Source: an uncultured Leptospirales bacterium
Lineage (GTDB): Bacteria > Spirochaetota > UBA4802 > JAFGDQ01
Direction of reading: 5' to 3'
NCBI GenBank assembly: GCA_964626055.1
Contig: CAZVDF010000005.1
Span: 6,057 to 70,056 of the forward strand
DNA length: 64,000 bases
The translations under genes and the position numbers were made by a program. Within the stretch, counting starts at the first letter, position 1. Every line of letters starts with the position of its first letter. The notes under the pieces were generated by a model, which made no database searches, was not told where the DNA came from, and saw only the letters and a program-made list of their open reading frames with translations. Positions 13,741 through 64,000 of the stretch are shown one piece after another.

Positions 13741-13767
13741 AGAGTATTTCTGTGGATAGTTTTTACC

Positions 13768-13824
13768 ATGATCTGGCTGGATAATATCTACTTCGACTCC
13801 ATAGATATTATCCAGCCAGATCAT
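13768..13824. terminator. Perfect 23-bp stem / 11-nt loop hairpin between convergent genes
   Basis: atgatctggctggataatatcta ... tagatattatccagccagatcat are exact reverse complements. The hairpin sits between the + hydrolase stop (13740) and the - oxidoreductase stop (13864). No U-tract follows. Confidence 0.45.
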
Positions 13825-13863
13825 CAGCAAAAATTTCCAGCATTTACTGTAATAGGTTTTTAA

Positions 13864-18270: not shown

Positions 18271-18354
18271 TTCTTTTTTTTTAAAATAAAAATGCCGATA
18301 TTGAATTATAAGTCTGTCTATTTAAAAATTATCTTAAAATAAGTACTTAATAGT

Positions 18355-18480
18355 GATAAACCGAAATACATTACAAAATTTATTGCGGAATGCCTTCCAG
18401 GTCAGTTTTTTATTTTTCCGAAAGCTGTTGCAACAGGTCTGAAAGACGTCCTCATAAATTATGTAATATATTTCGGTTTA
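18355..18480. repeat. Palindromic MITE-like element, copy A (~125 bp), with imperfect terminal inverted repeats
   Basis: Termini aaaccgaaatacattacaaaattt / aaattatgtaatatatttcggttt. About 80% identical to copy B at 20360-20490. Confidence 0.55.
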
Positions 18481-18582
18481 CAGCTAATTACTGAACTAAT
18501 ATATAAATTGTAAGATAGATTCTGTATAAACTGGCTGACACAATGGATCTCTGTTCCGAATTAGTAAATACACCGAGTAATA

Positions 18583-20244
18583 ATGCAAAAAAATAAAATT
18601 ATAATTTTGATCATATCATTTTTAATCATTTCCGCAAAGAACGATATTACAAATATCGTAAAAATGCCTTCGGCCGAATATCCTTCAGCCAATATAGAGA
18701 AACAGAACGCGATTGTTACATCCGATCCTGCAGGCAAAGAAGTATTTACAGTTAAAGATTTATCATACAGGGGAGAGAGCGATCCTTTGATCACAGATGT
18801 CTTATTATCATTCAATACTCCTTCTCCCTATCTTAAAAAAGACGATACCGGAAAATATATTATTCAGCAGGCACTTTATAAATTCATAAAAGAGAACGGC
18901 GTTCTCGGCGGGGGAGGGGCGGGATTTTCGCAAAGGGATCATAAAGTCGAAATCGAACCATCCAGGAATTTATGGCTCGGAAGCGCCGGCGATCTCGGAT
19001 CTTTTACGCTTGAATTCAGATTATTGCCGGTCGCTTTTAATAATGAAAGCGTTTTATTTTCCAGGGTGGGTTATTTTTCCGGCAGGAAGAACGGCATAGA
19101 AGTTAAAATAAAAGATAAAAGAATAATAGTAAATCTTTACCGAATATTTAAAGACTCCAGAGGAATAAGGTATGATGTCAGTCTTATTAAAGGCAGAGAC
19201 CTTGAGCTTAAAAAATGGCATCATTTCATATTCAGTTTCGACCGTATTTCAGGCAAGCTCGCGAAATACCTGAACGGACATGAAGAAGATGCAATATTTG
19301 TCACCGAAACGGACAGGCCTTTTGAAGATGTGTATGAACCGTCTTTTGAATCTGTAGATATGCCTGCCGCGGTAATAGGAAAAAAGTACTACGGTTATCT
19401 TGATGAATTCAGGATAACATATCGGCATATTGAAGATTTGAAGAAGGAAACGGATATTGCGTATAAAAATTATAAAAAACTCGGGACTCTCGGCAGGCAG
19501 CCCGTGAATCAGGTCGGGATTGTGACCAGCCCGGTATATGCTTTCGCTTCAACAGGGACATCCGTTTCGTTATTAAAATGGAATGAGCTGTTAAAAGAGA
19601 ATACATATATCTGGATGGAATTCAGAATAAGCGATAATCTGTTCGATAAAAATGACAAAGCGCTTAAGTGGTACCGGATAACGAACAGTCAGAAAAATAT
19701 TTATTTGATGAAAGAAGCGGGTGAATACCTGAGAGGCAAATATTACCAGTGGAAAGCTTATCTTGTCCCGTCGCCTGAGGGGAAAAATTCGCCTTATCTT
19801 TACGATGTCGAACTGACCTATCGGCTCGATCCTCCTCCGGCGGTTCCTCAATTTGTCTCATCAGCAAATGCGGGCGATAAGATCGTTCGAATCAAATGGA
19901 ATAAGAATGTAGAACACGATATTCTGGGCTACAGAATTTATTACGGCGTTATGCCGAATAAATATGAAGGCATCATAGGATATATAAACGGGAAAAGGAT
20001 AACGAATGAATTCAATAGCGGCAGAAAATATATTGAATTGGAATTGACCAATGACATAATTGAAGAAAATAAGCAGAAAGACCCGGCAGGCGTACTGGAG
20101 TACCCGTTTTTGGAAAACACTGTCCTTTACTTTTTTGCTGTCAGTGCATACGATTCGTACAGACCGGACACCCCCTATAATCATGAATCTTCATTATCGG
20201 AAGCTGTTAAAGCCCGCCCCTTCGCAGGGTCTGAAATAAAATAG
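18583..20244 (+). CDS. Hypothetical secreted protein, possibly a lectin/LamG-like domain plus an FN3-like C-terminal domain
   Basis: Signal peptide. The C-terminal segment PPPAVPQFVSSANAGDKIVRIKWNKNVEHDILGYRIYYG has an FN3-like pattern. The gene is bracketed by MITE-like copies A and B. Confidence 0.45.
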   Translation: MQKNKIIILIISFLIISAKNDITNIVKMPSAEYPSANIEKQNAIVTSDPAGKEVFTVKDLSYRGESDPLITDVLLSFNTPSPYLKKDDTGKYIIQQALYKFIKENGVLGGGGAGFSQRDHKVEIEPSRNLWLGSAGDLGSFTLEFRLLPVAFNNESVLFSRVGYFSGRKNGIEVKIKDKRIIVNLYRIFKDSRGIRYDVSLIKGRDLELKKWHHFIFSFDRISGKLAKYLNGHEEDAIFVTETDRPFEDVYEPSFESVDMPAAVIGKKYYGYLDEFRITYRHIEDLKKETDIAYKNYKKLGTLGRQPVNQVGIVTSPVYAFASTGTSVSLLKWNELLKENTYIWMEFRISDNLFDKNDKALKWYRITNSQKNIYLMKEAGEYLRGKYYQWKAYLVPSPEGKNSPYLYDVELTYRLDPPPAVPQFVSSANAGDKIVRIKWNKNVEHDILGYRIYYGVMPNKYEGIIGYINGKRITNEFNSGRKYIELELTNDIIEENKQKDPAGVLEYPFLENTVLYFFAVSAYDSYRPDTPYNHESSLSEAVKARPFAGSEIK

Positions 20245-20359
20245 CCGGGAATAATCTCAAAAATACTTTACTATAAATCCCGCAATAAGATAATATTGAA
20301 TTAATATATCTTATAATCAGAAGTCATCTCAGAATTATATTTTCACATAAATGATTAAT

Positions 20360-20490
20360 GATAAGTTGGAATACATTACAAAATTTTCTGCGGAATCAGA
20401 CCTTCCGGGTCAATCTTTTATGCTTTTGAACGCTATTGCATCAGGTCTGAAAGGCGTCCTCAAAAATTTTGTAATGTATTCCAACTTATC
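20360..20490. repeat. Palindromic MITE-like element, copy B (131 bp), with perfect 28-bp terminal inverted repeats
   Basis: gataagttggaatacattacaaaatttt (20360-20387) is the exact reverse complement of 20463-20490. The 64-aa ORF 20351-20545 inside it is very likely spurious. Confidence 0.6.
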
Positions 20491-20545
20491 AACAGATAGA
20501 TTACTATTTATAAACGACTTCTATTATTATTTTATCAATATTTAA

Positions 20546-27085: not shown

Positions 27086-27931
27086 ATGATATCTTCAATT
27101 TTATTCTATAAAGTTATACGGGACAGTCACGTGAGATTAGAAGTTGAGATTGGCTTTAAAAGTAAACCGCCTTTTTTAATTCCTGCTACTTATAGAAGGA
27201 ATATAGTAAGCCTCATAAGAGAATCCGTAAGATCGACGGATACAACCATGGATATTTACACCAAATATTGGGGCGAGGGCAATGCCCAAAGCATAAAACC
27301 GTACACATTTTTTTTGTCTATCCCGGGTGTAAATTATATAAATCTTAAACGAAAAAGATATATAGAAGCCCATGAAGATTCGGTAAAGCTGCATATTTCA
27401 TCGAGCGATTCTATTCTTCTTTCAATCTTTCATAAATGGCTTAACAATAATAAGCTGTTTAATTTATTTAATATTAATGTTGAAGTAGCGGGAATAAGTT
27501 TAAAAAACATTAAAACAATAAACTCGAGCTCCGTCACTTTTAAGATTTTATCCCCTGTGATTGTAAGGGATACGGAAATCGAAGGAAGAAAGAGGAAGGG
27601 AACCGGATACTTATCCTGCAATGACCACGATTTTGAAGATTCCCTGTCGCATTCGATTCTGAATCTTTGCAGGCGTTTTTTATATAATAAAAGGATAAGC
27701 AGAAACGATATCGAGATCGATGCTTCTCTCTGCGCGCACTCGGTAATTTACCATTACATGGAGACAATCCCGGTTACCATAGGCCTGATAAAAATTAAAG
27801 CGGATGAAGATGTACTTGAGCTGGTATATAATACCGGTCTTGGAGCCAGGCGCAGCCAGGGATTCGGCATGGTCGAACTGGTGTCTGAATCCGGATTTGC
27901 GCCGGTGCCGGCAATGAAGGAACTCGCCTAG
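27086..27931 (+). CDS. cas6: Cas6-family endoribonuclease homolog (solitary)
   Basis: The N-terminal ferredoxin-like domain has the Cas6 KPF/YTFS-type motif (IKPYTFFLSIP). The C-terminus has the diagnostic glycine-rich loop G-h-G-x5-G-h-G followed by hydrophobic residues (GLGARRSQGFGMVELV). Confidence 0.7.
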   Translation: MISSILFYKVIRDSHVRLEVEIGFKSKPPFLIPATYRRNIVSLIRESVRSTDTTMDIYTKYWGEGNAQSIKPYTFFLSIPGVNYINLKRKRYIEAHEDSVKLHISSSDSILLSIFHKWLNNNKLFNLFNINVEVAGISLKNIKTINSSSVTFKILSPVIVRDTEIEGRKRKGTGYLSCNDHDFEDSLSHSILNLCRRFLYNKRISRNDIEIDASLCAHSVIYHYMETIPVTIGLIKIKADEDVLELVYNTGLGARRSQGFGMVELVSESGFAPVPAMKELA

Positions 27932-31002: not shown

Positions 31003-31092
31003 GGAGATAATGATAGTATCCCTAATTTCCTGCGGAACTCGGCCTTTGGCCTCAGACAGTCCTCGGAAATTTGGGATACTATCATTATCTCC
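31003..31092. other. Perfect 20-bp inverted-repeat stem enclosing a conserved 42-nt core, copy 1 (candidate structured RNA or REP-like element)
   Basis: ggagataatgatagtatccc (31003-31022) is the exact reverse complement of 31073-31092. The core ttcctgcggaactcggcct-ttg-gcctcagacagtcctcggaa (31027-31068) recurs at 60041-60082. Confidence 0.5.
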
Positions 31093-54731: not shown

Positions 54732-54915
54732 GGCCCCCTAAATCCCCTTAAAGGGGGACTTAAAAGATTAGTTTTGGTATATAATGGAAAATTGTTTTAG
54801 TATATCAGATTGGATTTATTTTAGTCACTTATCTCGAAATGTGAATGGTATTATCGACTCAAATTTGAGGTCAGGTTGCAAATAAAAGTCCCCCTTTAGG
54901 GGGATTTAGGGGGCC
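54732..54915. repeat. GC-rich inverted-repeat element 2 (30-bp IR arms, ~125-bp AT-rich interior)
   Basis: ggccccctaaatccccttaaagggggactt (54732-54761) versus aagtccccctttagggggatttagggggcc (54886-54915) has one mismatch as a reverse complement. It shares the ccccctaa / ttaggggg motif with element 1. Confidence 0.5.
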
Positions 54916-56143: not shown

Positions 56144-56290
56144 TGTGCATAAAGACTGACAAATCATATAAAGATTTAAATGCAGATTATTACGAAATTA
56201 TGTATTATAAACGTGTCTTGAAAAATTTTAAGTATTAGGCACCCCAATTGGAATTCTCTTTATTGCCTTTACAGGCTAAGTATCCCAGAA
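56144..56290. repeat. Direct repeat DR1 (~147 bp), upstream copy
   Basis: tgtgcataaagactgacaaatcatataaagatttaaatgcagattattacgaaattatgtatt ... tatcccagaa is about 90% identical to 57465-57610. Confidence 0.65.
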
Positions 56291-56360: not shown

Positions 56361-57437
56361 TTGACAAATGATATTTATGAAAGGTTAGCTAATTATTTGG
56401 ATAAACTCCCGGGAGGATTTCCACACACCGAAAGCCAAGTGGAAATACGAATTTTACATCAACTTTTTACACCTCATGAAGCTGAACTTGCAATCCATTT
56501 AAAACTTTTTCCTGAAAAGCCTCAGGTAATTGCTCAACGTGCCGGGATTCCAGTCGACGAAGCTTTACGGCGATTGAAAGAAATGGAAGCCAAAGGACTT
56601 ATCATGAGTTTTAGCCCTGATAATAAAGTATTCTTATATATGGCATTACAGTACATCGTAGGCATTTGGGAAGCACAGCTTAATAAGTTGAACGCTAAGC
56701 TAATCCAAGATCATGAGGAATATTTAGAAACCGTAATGAAACAGTCGTTTTGGCATGGAACTCCTCAAATGAGGACAATTCCGATAAATAGAAGTATCAA
56801 TATCCAAAATGCCGTGATGACTTATGAAAATGCAGAAGACTTGGTAAACAGTCAAAAATCCTTTGCTGTATCTCATTGTATTTGCAGGAAAAGCATGCGT
56901 ATAATTGGTAAAGGCTGTAATAAACCTGAAGAGAGCTGTTTGACTTTTGGACATGTTGCTGATTCTTCTGTAAATGATGGTCGGGCTCGTGCTATAAATA
57001 AGGAAGAAGCCCTATCAATACTTCAGATAGCTGATGAAGCCGGGTTTGTACTCCAACCTAATAATGCTAAAGATCCTCTGTTCATTTGTACATGTTGCGG
57101 TTGCTGCTGTGGAGTGCTAAAAACTCTTAAGCACTATCCTGAACCAGCTAGTATGGTCGTCAGTGCTTTTGCAGCTACTATGAGAAGCGATACTTGCAAA
57201 GGATGTGGCCTTTGCGTTAAACGATGTCAGATGGAAGCAATTCGCATAAATAACAAGAAGGCAGTACTAGATGTGAAACGTTGTATTGGATGTGGGCTAT
57301 GTGTCAGTACATGCCCAACCAATTCTGTTTCTCTTGTACGTAAACCTGACACGGAGCAACCTTATGTACCGAAAGACTTCATTGAAACTAATATGATATT
57401 GGCAAAGAATCGTGGAAAACATAACCTAAACAGATAG
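56361..57437 (+). CDS. 4Fe-4S dicluster domain protein of unknown function (probably horizontally acquired)
   Basis: TTG start 9 nt after aggagg. Two C-terminal ferredoxin motifs (CKGCGLCVKRCQ, CIGCGLCVSTCP) plus extra Cys clusters (HCICRKS, CTCCGCCCG). Codon usage is NCG-poor (cct/gct/gga/aca), unlike the NCG-rich neighbouring genes. Confidence 0.6.
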   Translation: MTNDIYERLANYLDKLPGGFPHTESQVEIRILHQLFTPHEAELAIHLKLFPEKPQVIAQRAGIPVDEALRRLKEMEAKGLIMSFSPDNKVFLYMALQYIVGIWEAQLNKLNAKLIQDHEEYLETVMKQSFWHGTPQMRTIPINRSINIQNAVMTYENAEDLVNSQKSFAVSHCICRKSMRIIGKGCNKPEESCLTFGHVADSSVNDGRARAINKEEALSILQIADEAGFVLQPNNAKDPLFICTCCGCCCGVLKTLKHYPEPASMVVSAFAATMRSDTCKGCGLCVKRCQMEAIRINNKKAVLDVKRCIGCGLCVSTCPTNSVSLVRKPDTEQPYVPKDFIETNMILAKNRGKHNLNR

Positions 57438-57464: not shown

Positions 57465-57610
57465 TGTGCATAAAGACTGACAAATTATATAAAGATTTAA
57501 ATGCAGATTATCACGAAATTATGTATTGAAAACGTGTCTTGAGAAATTTTAAGTATAAGGCACCCAATTGGAATTTTCGTTATTGCCTTTACAGACTTAG
57601 TATCCCAGAA
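57465..57610. repeat. Direct repeat DR2 (~146 bp), downstream copy
   Basis: See DR1. Together the two copies bracket only the 4Fe-4S gene. Confidence 0.65.
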
Positions 57611-57683
57611 TCTTTTCATATTTTCGAGAGTTATCGAATCAGTTCCGGAAGTCGTTCTTAAAAATTTTATAATGTATTTTAAT

Positions 57684-59093
57684 CTATAAATTATATTTTC
57701 TTCTTATATATCTTCCATAGTTTTTCGCATCTCTCCATTGCGGGCGCGTGCCCATGCGATTGACCAATGCCTGTATGATTCTCATGGACATCCGTCTCCA
57801 GTCTGCAGGAGTTGACCATTCCGGACGTCGGCGGGCTACGGAATCCAGCACAGCAAGAGGATTTTTTCCGAGAGCCGGGGAAACATAATAGCGCGGCAGA
57901 AAAAGGTCTGCGTTGCCGGGTATCATTTTTTCTCTGATAGCGATTTTTTCGATCTCAGTATCCGGGTAGATGCGAAGTCCGAGCGATGCGAATACTGCAT
58001 TAGGTGTCTTACATGAGTCCAGAAATCGCTGTACTTCATCTATGTCGCCGGCATTCTCTTCGGGCCCTCCGAAAAGCATTTGTACGACAGCCGGCAGCTT
58101 CGCATTATGTACTGCATTTAAAGATTTGCGGATGTCAGCCTGATCGAATGGTTTTTTCATTACATTAAGCATTTTATCCGTGGCAGCGTCGACGCTCATC
58201 TCTATTCCTATACATCCGGATGCTTTCATAGCTTTCGCCAGCTCATCATCAAATCCTGCCGGATTGCAGTAAGCCATCCATGACACGGAAGAGCCCCGGC
58301 GGATCAGCTCACGGCAGATTTCAAGAGCGTGCTCGGGCGAACTGTTGAAGACATTATCTGTTATGAAAACATAACAGCCTTTGTTATTACTTGAAACATA
58401 TTCGAACTCATCTGCGATAAGGCCGGGATCGCGCAGACGCAGCCTGTGTCCTTCGAGATTCGGATAATTGCAGTAAATGCACTTGAACGGGCATCCGCGC
58501 TTGGTTTGAATGCCTATAAATCCTCCATGTGAAAGATATTTCGTGTATCTGCATAAATGGTGAGCGGGCCGGTGAAGATCATTGACTTCCGGTCGGTCGG
58601 CGGGCGATCCGTAATTACTACGGTAATTAGCCGGTGTTATGATCCCGGCTATGCCGTTCGCCCGTCTGTTTTCTGATATACATTTGAGCAATGAAACAAA
58701 GGCTTTTTCGCCTTCTCCGATCACGCCATAGTCAGGCTTCAAGCGCTCCATCCATCCGGCCGGGGAAATGGAAAAACCGCTTCCGCCGAGTATAAGAGGC
58801 GCATTGGTTAAACGTCGTATATCATCAAAGATTTCTTTTACTCCGTCTAAATATAATTCCTGGAACGCCCATGAACAGCTGTCGAGATTCCGGATTCCTA
58901 TGCCGATTGCAATATAATCACAGGATTTCAGAGCTTTTTTCAGTGCTCTTGCCGGAGACCGGACAAAGGACATATCGATAATATCCGCTTCGTAGCCTGC
59001 CTTTTCAGCAGCCGCAGCCACATATAGCACTCCGAGAGGAGCAACCGGGAAAGGCGACCTGTTCCTGTTCGATGCAACAAGCAGAATCCTCAC
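57684..59093 (-). CDS. B12-binding-domain radical SAM protein
   Basis: N-terminal cobalamin-binding Rossmann region (MRILLVASNRNRSPFPVAPLGVLYVAAAAEKAGYEADIID) and radical SAM CPFKCIYCNYP. Confidence 0.8.
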   Translation of the reverse strand: MRILLVASNRNRSPFPVAPLGVLYVAAAAEKAGYEADIIDMSFVRSPARALKKALKSCDYIAIGIGIRNLDSCSWAFQELYLDGVKEIFDDIRRLTNAPLILGGSGFSISPAGWMERLKPDYGVIGEGEKAFVSLLKCISENRRANGIAGIITPANYRSNYGSPADRPEVNDLHRPAHHLCRYTKYLSHGGFIGIQTKRGCPFKCIYCNYPNLEGHRLRLRDPGLIADEFEYVSSNNKGCYVFITDNVFNSSPEHALEICRELIRRGSSVSWMAYCNPAGFDDELAKAMKASGCIGIEMSVDAATDKMLNVMKKPFDQADIRKSLNAVHNAKLPAVVQMLFGGPEENAGDIDEVQRFLDSCKTPNAVFASLGLRIYPDTEIEKIAIREKMIPGNADLFLPRYYVSPALGKNPLAVLDSVARRRPEWSTPADWRRMSMRIIQALVNRMGTRPQWRDAKNYGRYIRRKYNL

Positions 59094-59319
59094 GCTTTAT
59101 TCTCCTTAAAATGTAAATTATGACAATATTGATTTATTTAAAAAATTATTTACAAGGAATTAATCAATTTGATTTGTTTCACCATAAAATTTGTTGCAAT
59201 TTGAATTGAAATACTACAACCCGTCCTTAAAATAATAATTTACATAAGTAACTGAAAATCATCTCGAAATTATTGATTCAATAAATGATTAACGATAAAT
59301 CGGAATATATAATAAATTT

Positions 59320-59916
59320 ATGAATCTGGCACTTTTTGATTTCGACGGGACAATAACCCGGAAAGATACTTTTACGGATTTTTTATTTTTTGCAGCAAAT
59401 TGGAAAAGACTCGTATCCGGATTTATCCTTCTGGCTCCTGTATTTTTGTGTTATAAGCTGGGAATAATTTCAGCTTCCAGAGCGCGGCAAATCGCCTACT
59501 TTTATGCTTTTAAAGGCCAAACTTTTGAGTATATCCGGTCTATGGGATTAAAATATGCGGAGTCGGTAATTCCGAAGTATGTAAAATCTGAAGCATTAAA
59601 AAGAATTGAATGGCATAGATCGCAGGGACATAATATTGTTGTTGTCTCAGCATCTATTGATGTATATCTGAAACCATGGTGCGATAAGAACAGGCTGGAT
59701 CTTATTTGTACAAGCTTCGAAGTTGATAAAGGTATTCTTACAGGAAAATATTTACACGGCGACTGCAGCGGAAAAGAAAAAGCAAAGAGAATAAAAGAGA
59801 AGTATGATACTAAATCCTATAAAATCATATACGCCTATGGCGACTCTTCTGATGACAGTGAGATGCTGGATATGGCAGATATTAAGTATTTTCGTGGTAA
59901 ACAGATAGATAATTAA
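59320..59916 (+). CDS. HAD-superfamily hydrolase (subfamily IB-like)
   Basis: Motif I LFDFDGTIT, motif II VVVSAS and motif IV GDSSDD. Confidence 0.7.
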   Translation: MNLALFDFDGTITRKDTFTDFLFFAANWKRLVSGFILLAPVFLCYKLGIISASRARQIAYFYAFKGQTFEYIRSMGLKYAESVIPKYVKSEALKRIEWHRSQGHNIVVVSASIDVYLKPWCDKNRLDLICTSFEVDKGILTGKYLHGDCSGKEKAKRIKEKYDTKSYKIIYAYGDSSDDSEMLDMADIKYFRGKQIDN

Positions 59917-60015
59917 AATCTTATCATTTTATCGTGGTGTTAAATATTAACTTAGAGTGCGTCCTAAAATTCTTATACTTTTTTATGCTGTATATAAGCA
60001 ACAATCGTTGGCAAA

Positions 60016-60095
60016 GGGATATATCATAAATCAATTTAAATTCCTGCGGAACTCGGCCTAGAGCCTCAGACAGTCCTCGGAACTATGATATGTCC
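60016..60095. other. Conserved 42-nt core, copy 2, inside an imperfect inverted repeat
   Basis: The core ttcctgcggaactcggcct-aga-gcctcagacagtcctcggaa (60041-60082) matches copy 1 in 39 of 42 positions, the three differences being the central trinucleotide. It is flanked by gggatatatcata / tatgatatgtcc. Confidence 0.45.
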
Positions 60096-60185
60096 AAATA
60101 TCGCTAATTGCCTTTTAGAGGTTTTGGATGCATTCTTAGTAAAAGTCAATCACCATGAGTTATTAAGTATAAATTTGGATGATAA

Positions 60186-61979: not shown

Positions 61980-62073
61980 GTTCAGCCGGTTAAGCTTCTA
62001 TAATAAATTTAATTTTAAGATGACTTATAAAGAAAATAGGTTGACAAAACGTATCCCATAGAATACATTTAAT

Positions 62074-62364
62074 ATGATAGAGATCAGACAAACAGAAACA
62101 TATAAGAAATGGTTCTCTTCCTTAAGAGACAGAAATGCAAAAATTCGGATTGATATTAGAATTAGAAGACTTTCTCTGGGTAATTATGGAAACGCAAAGC
62201 CTGTAGGAGCTGGAATATCGGAATTAAGAATTAATTACGGCCCGGGTTATAGAATATATTATATAAGAACGGATAATGAAATAATAATTCTGCTGGCAGG
62301 CGGCGATAAATCGACCCAATCAAGGGATATAAAGAAAGCGAAAGAGATTAGAGGTGTGATATGA
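62074..62364 (+). CDS. Type II toxin, RelE/ParE superfamily (HigB-like, COG3657 addiction-module killer)
   Basis: 96 aa. Pattern FSSLRDRNAKIRIDIRIRRLSLGNYGNAKPVGAGISELRINYGPGYRIYY. It overlaps the downstream gene by 4 nt. Confidence 0.7.
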   Translation: MIEIRQTETYKKWFSSLRDRNAKIRIDIRIRRLSLGNYGNAKPVGAGISELRINYGPGYRIYYIRTDNEIIILLAGGDKSTQSRDIKKAKEIRGVI

Positions 62365-62666
62365 AAAAAGAAAAAATAAGCATATGGGATGCTGCAGAGC
62401 ACCTTGAAACTGAAAAAGATATGGCCGCATATTTAGAAGCAGCATTGGAAGAAAATGACCCTTCACTAATTGCAGCTGCGTTGGGTGACATCGCGAGGGC
62501 TAAAGGAATGTCACGAATATCGAAGCGGACAGGACTTGGCAGGGAAAGCCTGTACAAAGCATTATCACCGGAGGGAAATCCTGAATTTTCTACAATACTA
62601 AAAGTTGTCAATGCTTTGGGATTAAAATTTCAGGCTGTTCCTGGAAAAATTAAATCTGCGGTTTAA
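62361..62666 (+). CDS. Cognate antitoxin (HigA-like / COG3636 addiction-module antidote, HTH)
   Basis: 101 aa. WDAAEHLETEKDMAAYLEAALEE...IAAALGDIARAKGMSRISKRTGLGRESLYKAL is the HTH core of this antidote family. Confidence 0.7.
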   Translation: MKKEKISIWDAAEHLETEKDMAAYLEAALEENDPSLIAAALGDIARAKGMSRISKRTGLGRESLYKALSPEGNPEFSTILKVVNALGLKFQAVPGKIKSAV

Positions 62667-62680
62667 CATGCTTTAATATC

Positions 62681-63742
62681 ATGAAAGACTCTCTAAAACA
62701 GAAAATATACAATAATAAGCGCATAAACCCAAAAGAAGCGCTTAAGCTTTTAAGCTGGGACATACTTGAACTCGGCAAAGCTGCGGATTACAGGCGACGC
62801 ATTATTTTCCCTGAAGAGGATGTAGGATTTATAATAGACCGCATTATCAACTACAGCAATATCTGCGAGGCTAAGTGCAACTTCTGCGCATTCCATGCAA
62901 AGGCAGGCAGAATGGATCCGTACGAGCTAACCATAGAAGAGATCCTTCGTAAAGCAGAAGAACTTGCCAATGCCGGCGGTAGTCAGATTATGCTCCAGGG
63001 CGGCCTGCATCCGGACTATATACTCGATAATTATATCGAAATGGTAAAAGCCGTCAAGTCCCGCTTCCCGAATATCAAGCTGCATTCTTTTTCTCCGTCG
63101 GAGCTTTTGCATATTGCGAAAAAGTCAAAACTTGATGTGGATGAAGTTCTTTATGTTTTACAATCGGCCGGGCTCGATTCAGTACCCGGGGCCTCGGATC
63201 TTCTGGTGGATAAAATCCGTAAAAAAGCGTGCCCGAAAAAGATAAAAACATCCGAATGGAAGAATGTAATGCTGGCTCTAAAAAAGCATAACATGTTCTC
63301 TTCCGCTACTATGACTTACGGCATGGGAGAAAGTCTTGCAGACAGGGTGGAACATTTAAATATCGTACGAAATGTCCAGGACAGCACAGGGATAATACGC
63401 GCGTTCATTCCGTGGTCGTTTTCTCCTGCGCATACGCAAATGGAGAATATTACGCCTGCTACAGGAGTCGATTATCTTAAAATCGTAGCTGTATCAAGAA
63501 TATTCCTGGATAACGTCGTTTACATACAGGCAGGCTGGCTGACCGAAGGTTTAAAGATTGCTCAGGTTGCCCTTGCTATGGGAGCGAATGACATGGGAGG
63601 AGTACTTACGGAAGAGGTTGTCGTAAAGTCAACCGGGATTGAGACCCGTGCCGGCAAACAGGAATTTATTGACTTAATCAGGAACGCGGGTAAAGTGCCT
63701 GTCGAAAGAAACTCGGCCTATGAAGTTATAAAAAAATACTAG
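62681..63742 (+). CDS. Radical SAM menaquinone biosynthesis enzyme, MqnE/MqnC family (second paralog)
   Basis: CEAKCNFCAF CxxxCxxC motif. Same architecture as the 53565-54653 gene (NYSNICE, YIQAGW). Confidence 0.75.
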   Translation: MKDSLKQKIYNNKRINPKEALKLLSWDILELGKAADYRRRIIFPEEDVGFIIDRIINYSNICEAKCNFCAFHAKAGRMDPYELTIEEILRKAEELANAGGSQIMLQGGLHPDYILDNYIEMVKAVKSRFPNIKLHSFSPSELLHIAKKSKLDVDEVLYVLQSAGLDSVPGASDLLVDKIRKKACPKKIKTSEWKNVMLALKKHNMFSSATMTYGMGESLADRVEHLNIVRNVQDSTGIIRAFIPWSFSPAHTQMENITPATGVDYLKIVAVSRIFLDNVVYIQAGWLTEGLKIAQVALAMGANDMGGVLTEEVVVKSTGIETRAGKQEFIDLIRNAGKVPVERNSAYEVIKKY

Positions 63743-64000
63743 AAGCCATTTTAAAATTTTTTTTTGCTGATCAATCGGGATATATCATAAAATTTTTGAG
63801 GAGCCTTTCAGACCTGATGGAAATGCGCTCGAAAACATCAAAGACTGGCCAGGAAGATCTGATTCCGCAGAAAATTTTTGATATATCCCGATTGATCGAT
63901 AAACATTAAAATGTATCAAAAATTTGGAGATGGCTTTTAGTAACCATTTAAAAGGTTTTTAGCTACATTCTTAATTTTTAATTTCAAAGATAATATCAGA

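Follow-up and report, generated by a model that had tools for sequence, protein, structure and literature searches.

A 64-kb stretch of DNA from an uncultured Leptospirales bacterium (contig CAZVDF010000005.1; the whole stretch is hereafter called the window) contains two palindromic repeats, A and B, one on either side of a gene for a LamG-like protein. What are these repeats, and does their position around the gene mean anything? An earlier reading of the sequence (the original prediction) described them as a pair of ~130-bp palindromes with 28-bp terminal inverted repeats (TIRs), and proposed that they could be non-autonomous transposable elements or a structured RNA family whose bracketing arrangement might mobilise or silence the enclosed gene. 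Our analysis indicates that A and B are probably two old, independent insertions belonging to a family of non-coding, nested-palindromic repeats of ~200-220 bp, of the kind called MITEs (miniature transposable elements with inverted repeats).

A family of nested-palindromic elements

The inverted repeat of copy B consists of two 29-nt arms (20359-20387 and 20463-20491) that are 100% complementary and separated by 75 nt, and that of copy A of two 27-nt arms (18357-18383 and 18454-18480) that are 93% complementary. The copies share 83-85% identity over ~130 nt, in agreement with the ~80% first estimated, have both cores in the + orientation and, as described, lie on either side of the 553-aa open reading frame (ORF) 18583-20244. 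Their likeness is beyond chance: a 21-nt core motif occurs twice in the window against 0.01 occurrences expected by chance, and a stem 17-mer six times against 1.1 expected. On either strand the folds have z-scores of -4.6 to -10.8, and none of 200 shuffles equalled the real fold. The ~130-bp palindromic pair of the original prediction is thus present, but each member is the inner part of a longer element that has more than two copies in the window. In the same way, the proposed 28-bp TIRs exist as a perfect repeat in B (29 bp) and an imperfect one in A, but they form an internal stem and not the termini, since similarity between copies continues outward for 35-55 bp on each side, up to a pair of outer TIRs; the true ends are ~40 bp beyond the stem.

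Alignment of the copies with their flanks gave the length of the intact element, ~200-220 bp, and its organization. From the outside inward, it is composed of a TA dinucleotide, an outer TIR of ~22 bp, a linker arm, an inner stem of 26-31 bp and an asymmetric core of 75 nt. The consensus of the outer repeat is TA-[C/G]AAGYCATCTCAAAA..., in fuller form [C/G]AAGYCATCTCAAAAWTAT; it is found at both ends of most intact copies and is degenerate in A and B. Similarity between copies ends at TA-[C/G]AAG... on both sides, and the flanks past the terminal TA are unrelated. Concerning target-site duplications, which had been named as something to look for, nearly every intact copy is bounded by TA on either side, and a longer direct repeat was not seen. 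The two linker arms are unlike each other, one being long ('alpha', e.g. GATTCAnnTAAATGATTnAnnAT) and the other short ('beta', e.g. ATATTTTnnTTGCTGAT). The inner stems are AT-rich, while the core ends, CTGCGGAATCAGACCTTCC... and ...CAGGTCTGAAAGGCGTCCTC, are nearly invariant. Mean pairwise identity reaches 84% in the core, 82% in the stems and ~50% in the arms taken with some flank. The element has no coding capacity: the 64-aa ORF that had been considered a by-product of copy B is present at 20351-20545 and runs through this copy, and the reading frame through the core, the only one there, is interrupted or lacks a start codon in the other copies (read by eye).

A profile was built from full copies and run with nhmmer, whereas solo ends were located by pattern search. 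Copy A (18323-18526, + by its core strand, ~204 bp; match 18316-18533, score 152.8) is full length. It has a degenerate short-arm end with its TA at 18323-18324, stem arms at 18354-18383 and 18454-18481, a core at 18384-18453 and, to the right of the core, the alpha arm with a degenerate outer repeat up to the right TA (18525-18526). Copy B (20318-20523, +; match 20308-20532, score 207.3) is laid out the opposite way, with the outer repeat and alpha arm (20318-20358) to the left of the core (20388-20462), a stem (20359-20387 / 20463-20491) paired at 29 of 29 positions, and a short arm (20492-20523) that is degenerate and doubtful. The profile added a third full copy, C (63740-63939, - strand, score 155.7), which measures 200 bp including both TA, as well as partial copies. 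One of these (57613-57689, +, E = 4.7e-9) comprises the right part of the core, the right stem arm and an arm, and overlaps the 3' end of gene 57684-59093 (-) by a few bases. The other (59252-59331, +, E = 2.2e-6) comprises the outer repeat, the long arm and the left stem arm, and continues into the ATG of a HAD-family gene (59320-59916). Pattern search yielded a solo outer terminal repeat, TATAAGTCATCTTAAAATTAAA, at 62008-62029 (-). Counting two variant hairpins presented below, the 64-kb window holds three full copies, two half copies, one solo end and two variant hairpins. In addition, a weak pattern match read by eye at 20249-20285 (+), just 3' of the stop codon of the LamG-like gene, resembles a decayed remnant of a further copy, with the outer-repeat-like GAATAATCTCAAAAATAC followed by TTTACTATAAATCCCG.

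Outside the window, a core 19-mer was scanned over one genome per species, the window's own genome not being among these representatives. It gave 15 exact copies in the Spirochaetes metagenome-assembled genome (MAG) JAFGSG01 (Zodletone), one in the Spirochaetota MAG JAZDKB01, and two further matches that were plainly chance. The profile search added the copy L007b, and the JAFGSG01 loci have at least 17 copies in all. The copy-number search advised by the original prediction, carried out here with the core 19-mer and the profile as probes, has thus revealed further copies in the window and in two MAGs. When metagenomes were scanned for a gapped core pattern, 14 matches were obtained, about the chance estimate and all in unrelated GC-rich sequence, and no match was found in viral contigs (two patterns), plasmids or phages. 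So far, and as far as these searches reach, the family is narrow and belongs to a small clade of uncultivated Spirochaetota. As a set of nested-palindromic, MITE-like repeats in uncultivated Spirochaetota it is new; the MITE kind itself is ordinary, and Spirochaetes have already been reported to have MITE-rich genomes (PMC11602168).

Half copies, solo ends and internally deleted mini-copies are common, and some mini-copies retain the ends without the hairpin. Truncated copies and mini-copies are present as expected for decaying transposon relics. One MAG copy (L013, 2144-2429) carries a 56-bp GC-rich insertion in the core that replaces CAGACC and may be another small inserted sequence. We also observed that short-read contigs stop inside elements, namely L001 and L034 (Logan, SRR8925802) and the MAG loci L004, L006, L011, L017 and L018, their ends falling inside a stem arm or no more than about 10 nt from a stem/core junction. 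Because contigs break in the repeats, the assemblies are fragmented and copy numbers in the MAGs are underestimated.

Insertion sites and the enclosed gene

All 20 copies examined are intergenic, and about 10 of them either come to within 8 bp of the end of a neighbouring ORF or overlap it slightly. With respect to the flanking genes no orientation is preferred, whether judged by the core or by the arm asymmetry; in co-directional contexts, our own tally is five cores running with the genes and five against. The original prediction had named as adverse outcomes a family of only two copies without flanking duplications, or a high copy number with copies never beside genes elsewhere: there are more than two copies, and everywhere copies lie beside genes.

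The enclosed gene (18583-20244, +) encodes a 553-aa protein with a borderline match to the concanavalin-like Laminin_G_3 family (26.5 bits in Pfam against a cut-off of 27.6). Orthologous loci were reached via homologs of the neighbouring CCA-adding enzyme. In L035 (JAFGSG01), the order AsnRS-LamG-CCA-OYE is kept, the spacers measure 157 and 82 bp versus 312 and 301 bp in the window, and a profile search of 21 kb detected no element. In L036 (JAZDKB01), the LamG-like gene is beside the CCA gene and the element is absent. The same gene order is also found on three JGI contigs (sample 3300075153; 86-90% protein identity for the relatives in this sample, 87-88% for the CCA-adding enzymes), which were compared by gene maps; their spacers as called are 103-312 and 37-187 bp, the 37-bp spacer following a 494-aa CCA call that looks ~30 aa too long. 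Since this synteny exists in relatives without the elements, the gene is ancestral at the locus and belongs to none of the elements. A and B are best read as separate, lineage-specific insertions and do not form a gene-mobilising unit.

The opposite view, in which A and B would act together as a composite unit that mobilises, captures or silences the LamG-like gene, could draw on the two copies flanking one gene with the same core orientation, on assembly contigs that break inside both repeats and on a single promoter-like site at the left end of B (CTGAGA-18-TATATT), which points antisense into the gene. It is nevertheless exceedingly improbable, as it is contradicted by the presence of the gene at the same place in L035 and L036 without elements, by the opposite orientation of A and B when judged by their asymmetric arms, by their degenerate outer ends, and by the copies that elsewhere flank unrelated genes singly. 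To annotate the LamG-like gene as a mobile cassette would be a mistake. Outward hybrid promoters arising from the -35-like TTGAGA of the terminal repeat were also considered and found unconvincing (10 of 46 ends versus 5 of 46 at control spacing).

The third full copy offers another view of an insertion site. In copy C, the TA (63740-63741) and the first G of the element make up the TAG stop codon of a CofH/MqnC-like gene (62681-63742), and the same tyrosine is the last residue in two of three orthologs that were retrieved. The copy C site is empty in JAZDKB01 (L037), and in one JGI relative the neighbouring genes overlap there. When orthologs of the window genes were sought in the element-carrying MAG loci, none were found. 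Alignment of the flanks of A and B to the element-free L035 gave fuzzy boundaries, and a possible ~12-bp duplication at A is too degenerate to count.

Solo remnants of the outer repeat occur in spacers of orthologous loci that lack full elements, at 11395-11588 in L035 and at 2316, 7984 and 11754 in L036; one of those in L036 is just upstream of the LamG-like gene. Their occurrence in orthologous spacers implies that these spacers have been hit repeatedly.

Stem pairing and core orientation

Covariation was computed on 14 full copies. In the predicted structure, 97.9% of the cells are paired, and in the long stem 12 pairs have changed on both sides, a number that none of 500 shuffles reached and that compares with at most 2 in slid controls. 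Such strong covariation, the very stable folds (z down to -10.8) and the conserved core would suit a functional structured RNA family, either a cis-regulatory hairpin or a small RNA, under selection on folding. In the same direction, three one-sided G.U/G-C changes in the small apical helix fit the + strand, and copies are located inside co-directional gene strings, where transcription is expected. The nature of the substitutions points elsewhere. Among single mismatches there are eight G.T, five A.C and five others, so that G.T and A.C are similar in number and neither strand is favoured. Compensated changes are of 14 kinds, and 6 of these are transversions, for which a wobble intermediate does not exist. 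Moreover, the even split of core orientation relative to genes, the flipping of the core relative to its own arms, the variable presence at orthologous sites and the abundance of truncated copies are at odds with a selected transcript. No Rfam model matched the window at its gathering score, and matches with E up to 10 gave nothing relevant, the best sub-threshold one being a plant microRNA model with 17.9 bits versus 245. The RNA alternative left open by the original prediction is weakened by these results, and we regard it as clearly improbable.

Copy B is instructive in this respect, its outer arms being decayed while its stem is still paired at 29 of 29 positions. Together with the lack of strand bias and the transversions, this perfect stem amid decay fits copying from arm to arm better than selection on a transcript. 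The stem pairing thus points to concerted evolution of the arms at the DNA level rather than to a functional RNA.

The orientation of the core provides a second line of evidence. Compared with the reverse complement of L015, L007b has nearly identical long and short arms and an inverted core; the same relation, nearly identical arms around inverted cores, holds between L019 and the reverse complement of L012. Among the 15 copies that could be classified, the long arm is to the left of the core in nine and to the right in six. The presence of both core orientations between near-identical arms implies an exchange within the inner stem arms, the sole process able to produce it. As judged from this pattern, and on the simplest account, the two inner stem arms of an element would recombine or template-switch with each other after insertion, so that the core flips and changes are copied from one arm to the other; if a different copy, aligned either way round, served as the template for repair, the core would likewise flip and the arms be homogenised. 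Such an exchange would explain both the perfect stems in decayed copies and the two core orientations.

A core found in both orientations (nine versus six) between the inverted repeats of near-identical copies is also what programmed invertible switches, or invertons, would display, the 29-bp repeats then serving as recombinase sites and the flip altering expression of the neighbouring genes. The flipped segment is only 75 nt long, however, and no sigma-70-like promoter was found inside it; no recombinase gene lies beside any copy examined, and the repeat arms differ between subfamilies. Logan contigs of SRR8925802, from the same sample, match the window, and copy C, the sole locus with two assemblies, has the same orientation in the window and in the Logan contig L038. 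We therefore consider invertons very improbable. Population-level flipping at A and B, as might be read from the break points of Logan contigs, was rejected, these points being better explained by k-mers shared among copies.

Small asymmetric loops that exist in two orientations are known from other settings, in particular the small inversions of chloroplast spacers, the terminal hairpins of parvoviruses and the template-switch inversions at quasi-palindromes. These flip/flop isomers, like the present element, have an asymmetric loop in both orientations between perfect inverted repeats whose arms remain complementary. Unlike it, they are not dispersed families of mobile repeats; the flip described here is seen between paralogous copies.

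The palindromic, mobile-looking repeat joins three features: a perfectly paired stem, no sign of strand-specific RNA selection, and a flipping centre. It also calls for caution in covariation-based RNA discovery, as concerted evolution of inverted-repeat arms can mimic conservation of RNA structure. A possible effect on neighbours is that a 29-bp hairpin lying within a run of co-directional genes may serve as a place where RNA is processed or where transcription pauses.

Mobility, core boxes and a second hairpin family

Several of the properties by which MITEs are recognized are found together in this family: small size (within the range of 50-800 bp), no coding sequence, TIRs above the minimum of 10-15 bp at the true ends, many dispersed copies, and presence or absence at orthologous sites. 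Among the readings offered in the original prediction, the non-autonomous, MITE-like one is the best supported, the elements being multi-copy, dispersed, non-coding and intergenic, flanked by TA with TIRs, and absent from orthologous sites in a relative. According to the proposed mechanism, a transposase acting in trans would bind the outer repeats and move, or have moved, the elements. With TA at either end, an IS630/Tc1-like enzyme causing TA duplication is suggested, and insertion would take place in AT-rich spacers, often right at stop codons. Among ~37 genes of the window no transposase or recombinase was found, and they are housekeeping genes only (BamA, LpxA/D, SecDF, RibD, menaquinone genes, etc.).

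Several known repeat families resemble the present one. The CREE/NEMIS repeats of Neisseria are non-coding palindromes of ~100-155 bp with ~26-bp TIRs and TA at both ends, intergenic and close to genes; they form long hairpins when transcribed, their ends can create promoters, and left and right end subtypes occur in varied combinations. The resemblance lies in a small, non-coding, palindromic repeat with TIRs and TA in intergenic DNA. There is no sequence similarity, however, and the present element exceeds them in length, contains an additional, internal stem of 29 bp as well as an invariant asymmetric core in both orientations, and shows no identified IHF-site consensus. RUP of Streptococcus pneumoniae and other IS630-related MITEs measure ~100-200 bp, are flanked by TA and presumably depend for their movement on an IS630-family transposase acting in trans. 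They share with our family the non-autonomous character, the size and the TA flanks, the difference being that no cognate insertion sequence with matching ends was found here. The ERIC/IRU repeats of enterobacteria are imperfect palindromes of ~127 bp in transcribed intergenic regions, inserted in either orientation and with insertion/deletion variants. ERICs are not known to have a terminal-repeat/TA structure or a comparable architecture of inner stem and core. The likeness is that of intergenic palindromes in either orientation, whereas host phylum and sequence are unrelated and the present element possesses the TIR/TA and stem/core organization.

Other kinds of element were set aside. An integron attC/cassette array disagrees with ends that misfit RYYYAAC...GTTRRRY and with copies dispersed among housekeeping genes in mixed orientation. 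Likewise, inspection by eye against the consensus disclosed none of the defining motifs of a small peptide, a sigma-54 promoter, a dif/Xer site, an attC site, a retron or a telomere-resolvase site.

Several points weigh against a MITE-type origin of A and B. First, neither the 64-kb window nor ~200 kb of related loci yielded an autonomous partner whose ends match. Secondly, a clean empty site with a single TA was not recovered among the orthologous loci compared, and the TA may be part of the repeat instead of a target duplication. Thirdly, the right arm of B fits the native L035 sequence about as well as the family consensus, which leaves its right boundary uncertain, and part of the absence in L035 could be due to deletion and not to a site that was never occupied. 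Finally, the best-conserved parts of the element are the core boxes and not the termini, which a plain transposase-end model does not predict, and the same boxes, TGCGGAA ... GTCCTC, recur at the closing point of hairpins that form a second family, with unrelated stems and apical parts. The boxes are the one feature that a plain MITE model leaves unexplained, and they could mark an internal protein-binding site or a folded-strand site.

The second hairpin family has short cores of 34-41 nt. Its first representative in the window (31003-31092, +) has an unrelated 28-bp stem on the boxes TGCGGAAC ... ACAGTCCTC, a 34-nt core and no recognisable outer repeats. The second (59953-60148, +) shows outer-repeat-like ends, a decayed stem and a core at 60045-60078, and a hairpin of the same family is located in JAZDKB01 (L037, 56-160), in the same HAD/ABC-F spacer. 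In the predicted fold, the boxes form GCGGA/UCCUC, in which a C.U mismatch occurs along with a bulged pyrimidine. The right box also resembles the outer repeat (GTCCTCAAAAATT versus GTCATCTCAAAATT), a likeness to be compared with elements whose ends each have two binding sites. The sharing of boxes between the two families is a hint that the fold, or else a protein site inside the element, is of importance. The mobilising enzyme may bind internally at the boxes; another possibility is a recognition site on the folded strand.

The latter possibility leads to a different type of element, a hairpin-dependent one of the REPIN/RAYT or IS200/IS605-derived (PATE) kind, in which the mobile unit would be a folded single strand handled by an HUH/Y1-type enzyme and the outer repeats would be secondary. 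REPINs are hairpin-forming, intergenic doublets with pairing arms, and the REPs of which they consist are short and GC-rich with a conserved 5' tetranucleotide. The present family shares with them dispersed intergenic hairpins whose arms keep pairing, and differs by its outer TIRs and its AT-rich stems of 26-31 bp. A hairpin-dependent element would account for a stem that conserves structure rather than sequence, for a stem-base box common to two families with unrelated stems and apical parts, for core boxes more conserved than the termini, and for the hairpin at 31003-31092 without outer repeats. We judge it rather unlikely, given that most intact copies have clear outer TIRs and TA, which IS200/IS605-type elements lack, that the long AT-rich stems are unlike short GC-rich REPs, that the genes scanned in the window and related loci include no Y1/HUH or RAYT gene, and that mini-copies exist in which the ends are kept and the hairpin is lost.

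A related idea, which we consider unlikely as well and slightly more so, is that the conserved part of the element is a folded-strand module, consisting of a long stem of free sequence on an invariant box, upon which a structure-specific enzyme would act on single-stranded DNA or RNA. Candidate enzymes would be an HUH/Y1-type transposase or, more speculatively, a stand-alone Cas6-like nuclease, and the core flip would be part of the copying or switching of the module. If true, this would define a new kind of hairpin-guided mobile or RNA-processing element and not a plain MITE. The gene for this Cas6-like protein is at 27086-27931 in the window (Pfam Cas_Cas6_C, E = 3.7e-22) and occupies the same position in L035 and a JGI relative, being syntenic in at least three genomes of the clade; its direct neighbours include no cas gene, and a CRISPR array was not noticed.

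Returning to the MITE-like family, its repeats explain, from the standpoint of annotation, why a spurious 64-aa ORF appears, why short-read contigs are broken and why spacers around conserved genes vary in length in this clade. The finding is for the most part ordinary; what merits following up is that the core flips, that the stem evolves in concert and that invariant boxes are common to the second family.

Other sequences in the window adjoin the elements or resemble them. The solo repeat at 62008-62029 adjoins an inserted pair of small genes (62074-62666), toxin-antitoxin-like, the second of which matches an addiction-module antidote family; the spacer that holds this pair measures only 60 bp in a JGI relative. 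A direct repeat of ~150 bp, 90% identical between its copies at 56144-56290 and 57465-57610, flanks a ferredoxin-domain gene (56361-57437), and each of its copies precedes a different half of the MITE-like element, which has the look of a single element that was split or duplicated. Between convergent genes, an inverted repeat of 38 bp at 13753-13839, 84% complementary with arms 11 nt apart, looks like a bidirectional terminator. Lastly, a third, GC-rich palindromic family (GGCCCCCTAAATCCCC...) is represented at 54732-54915 in the window, with 30-bp arms that are 97% complementary and 124 nt apart, and at ~20900-20975 in L035, the two loci being different.

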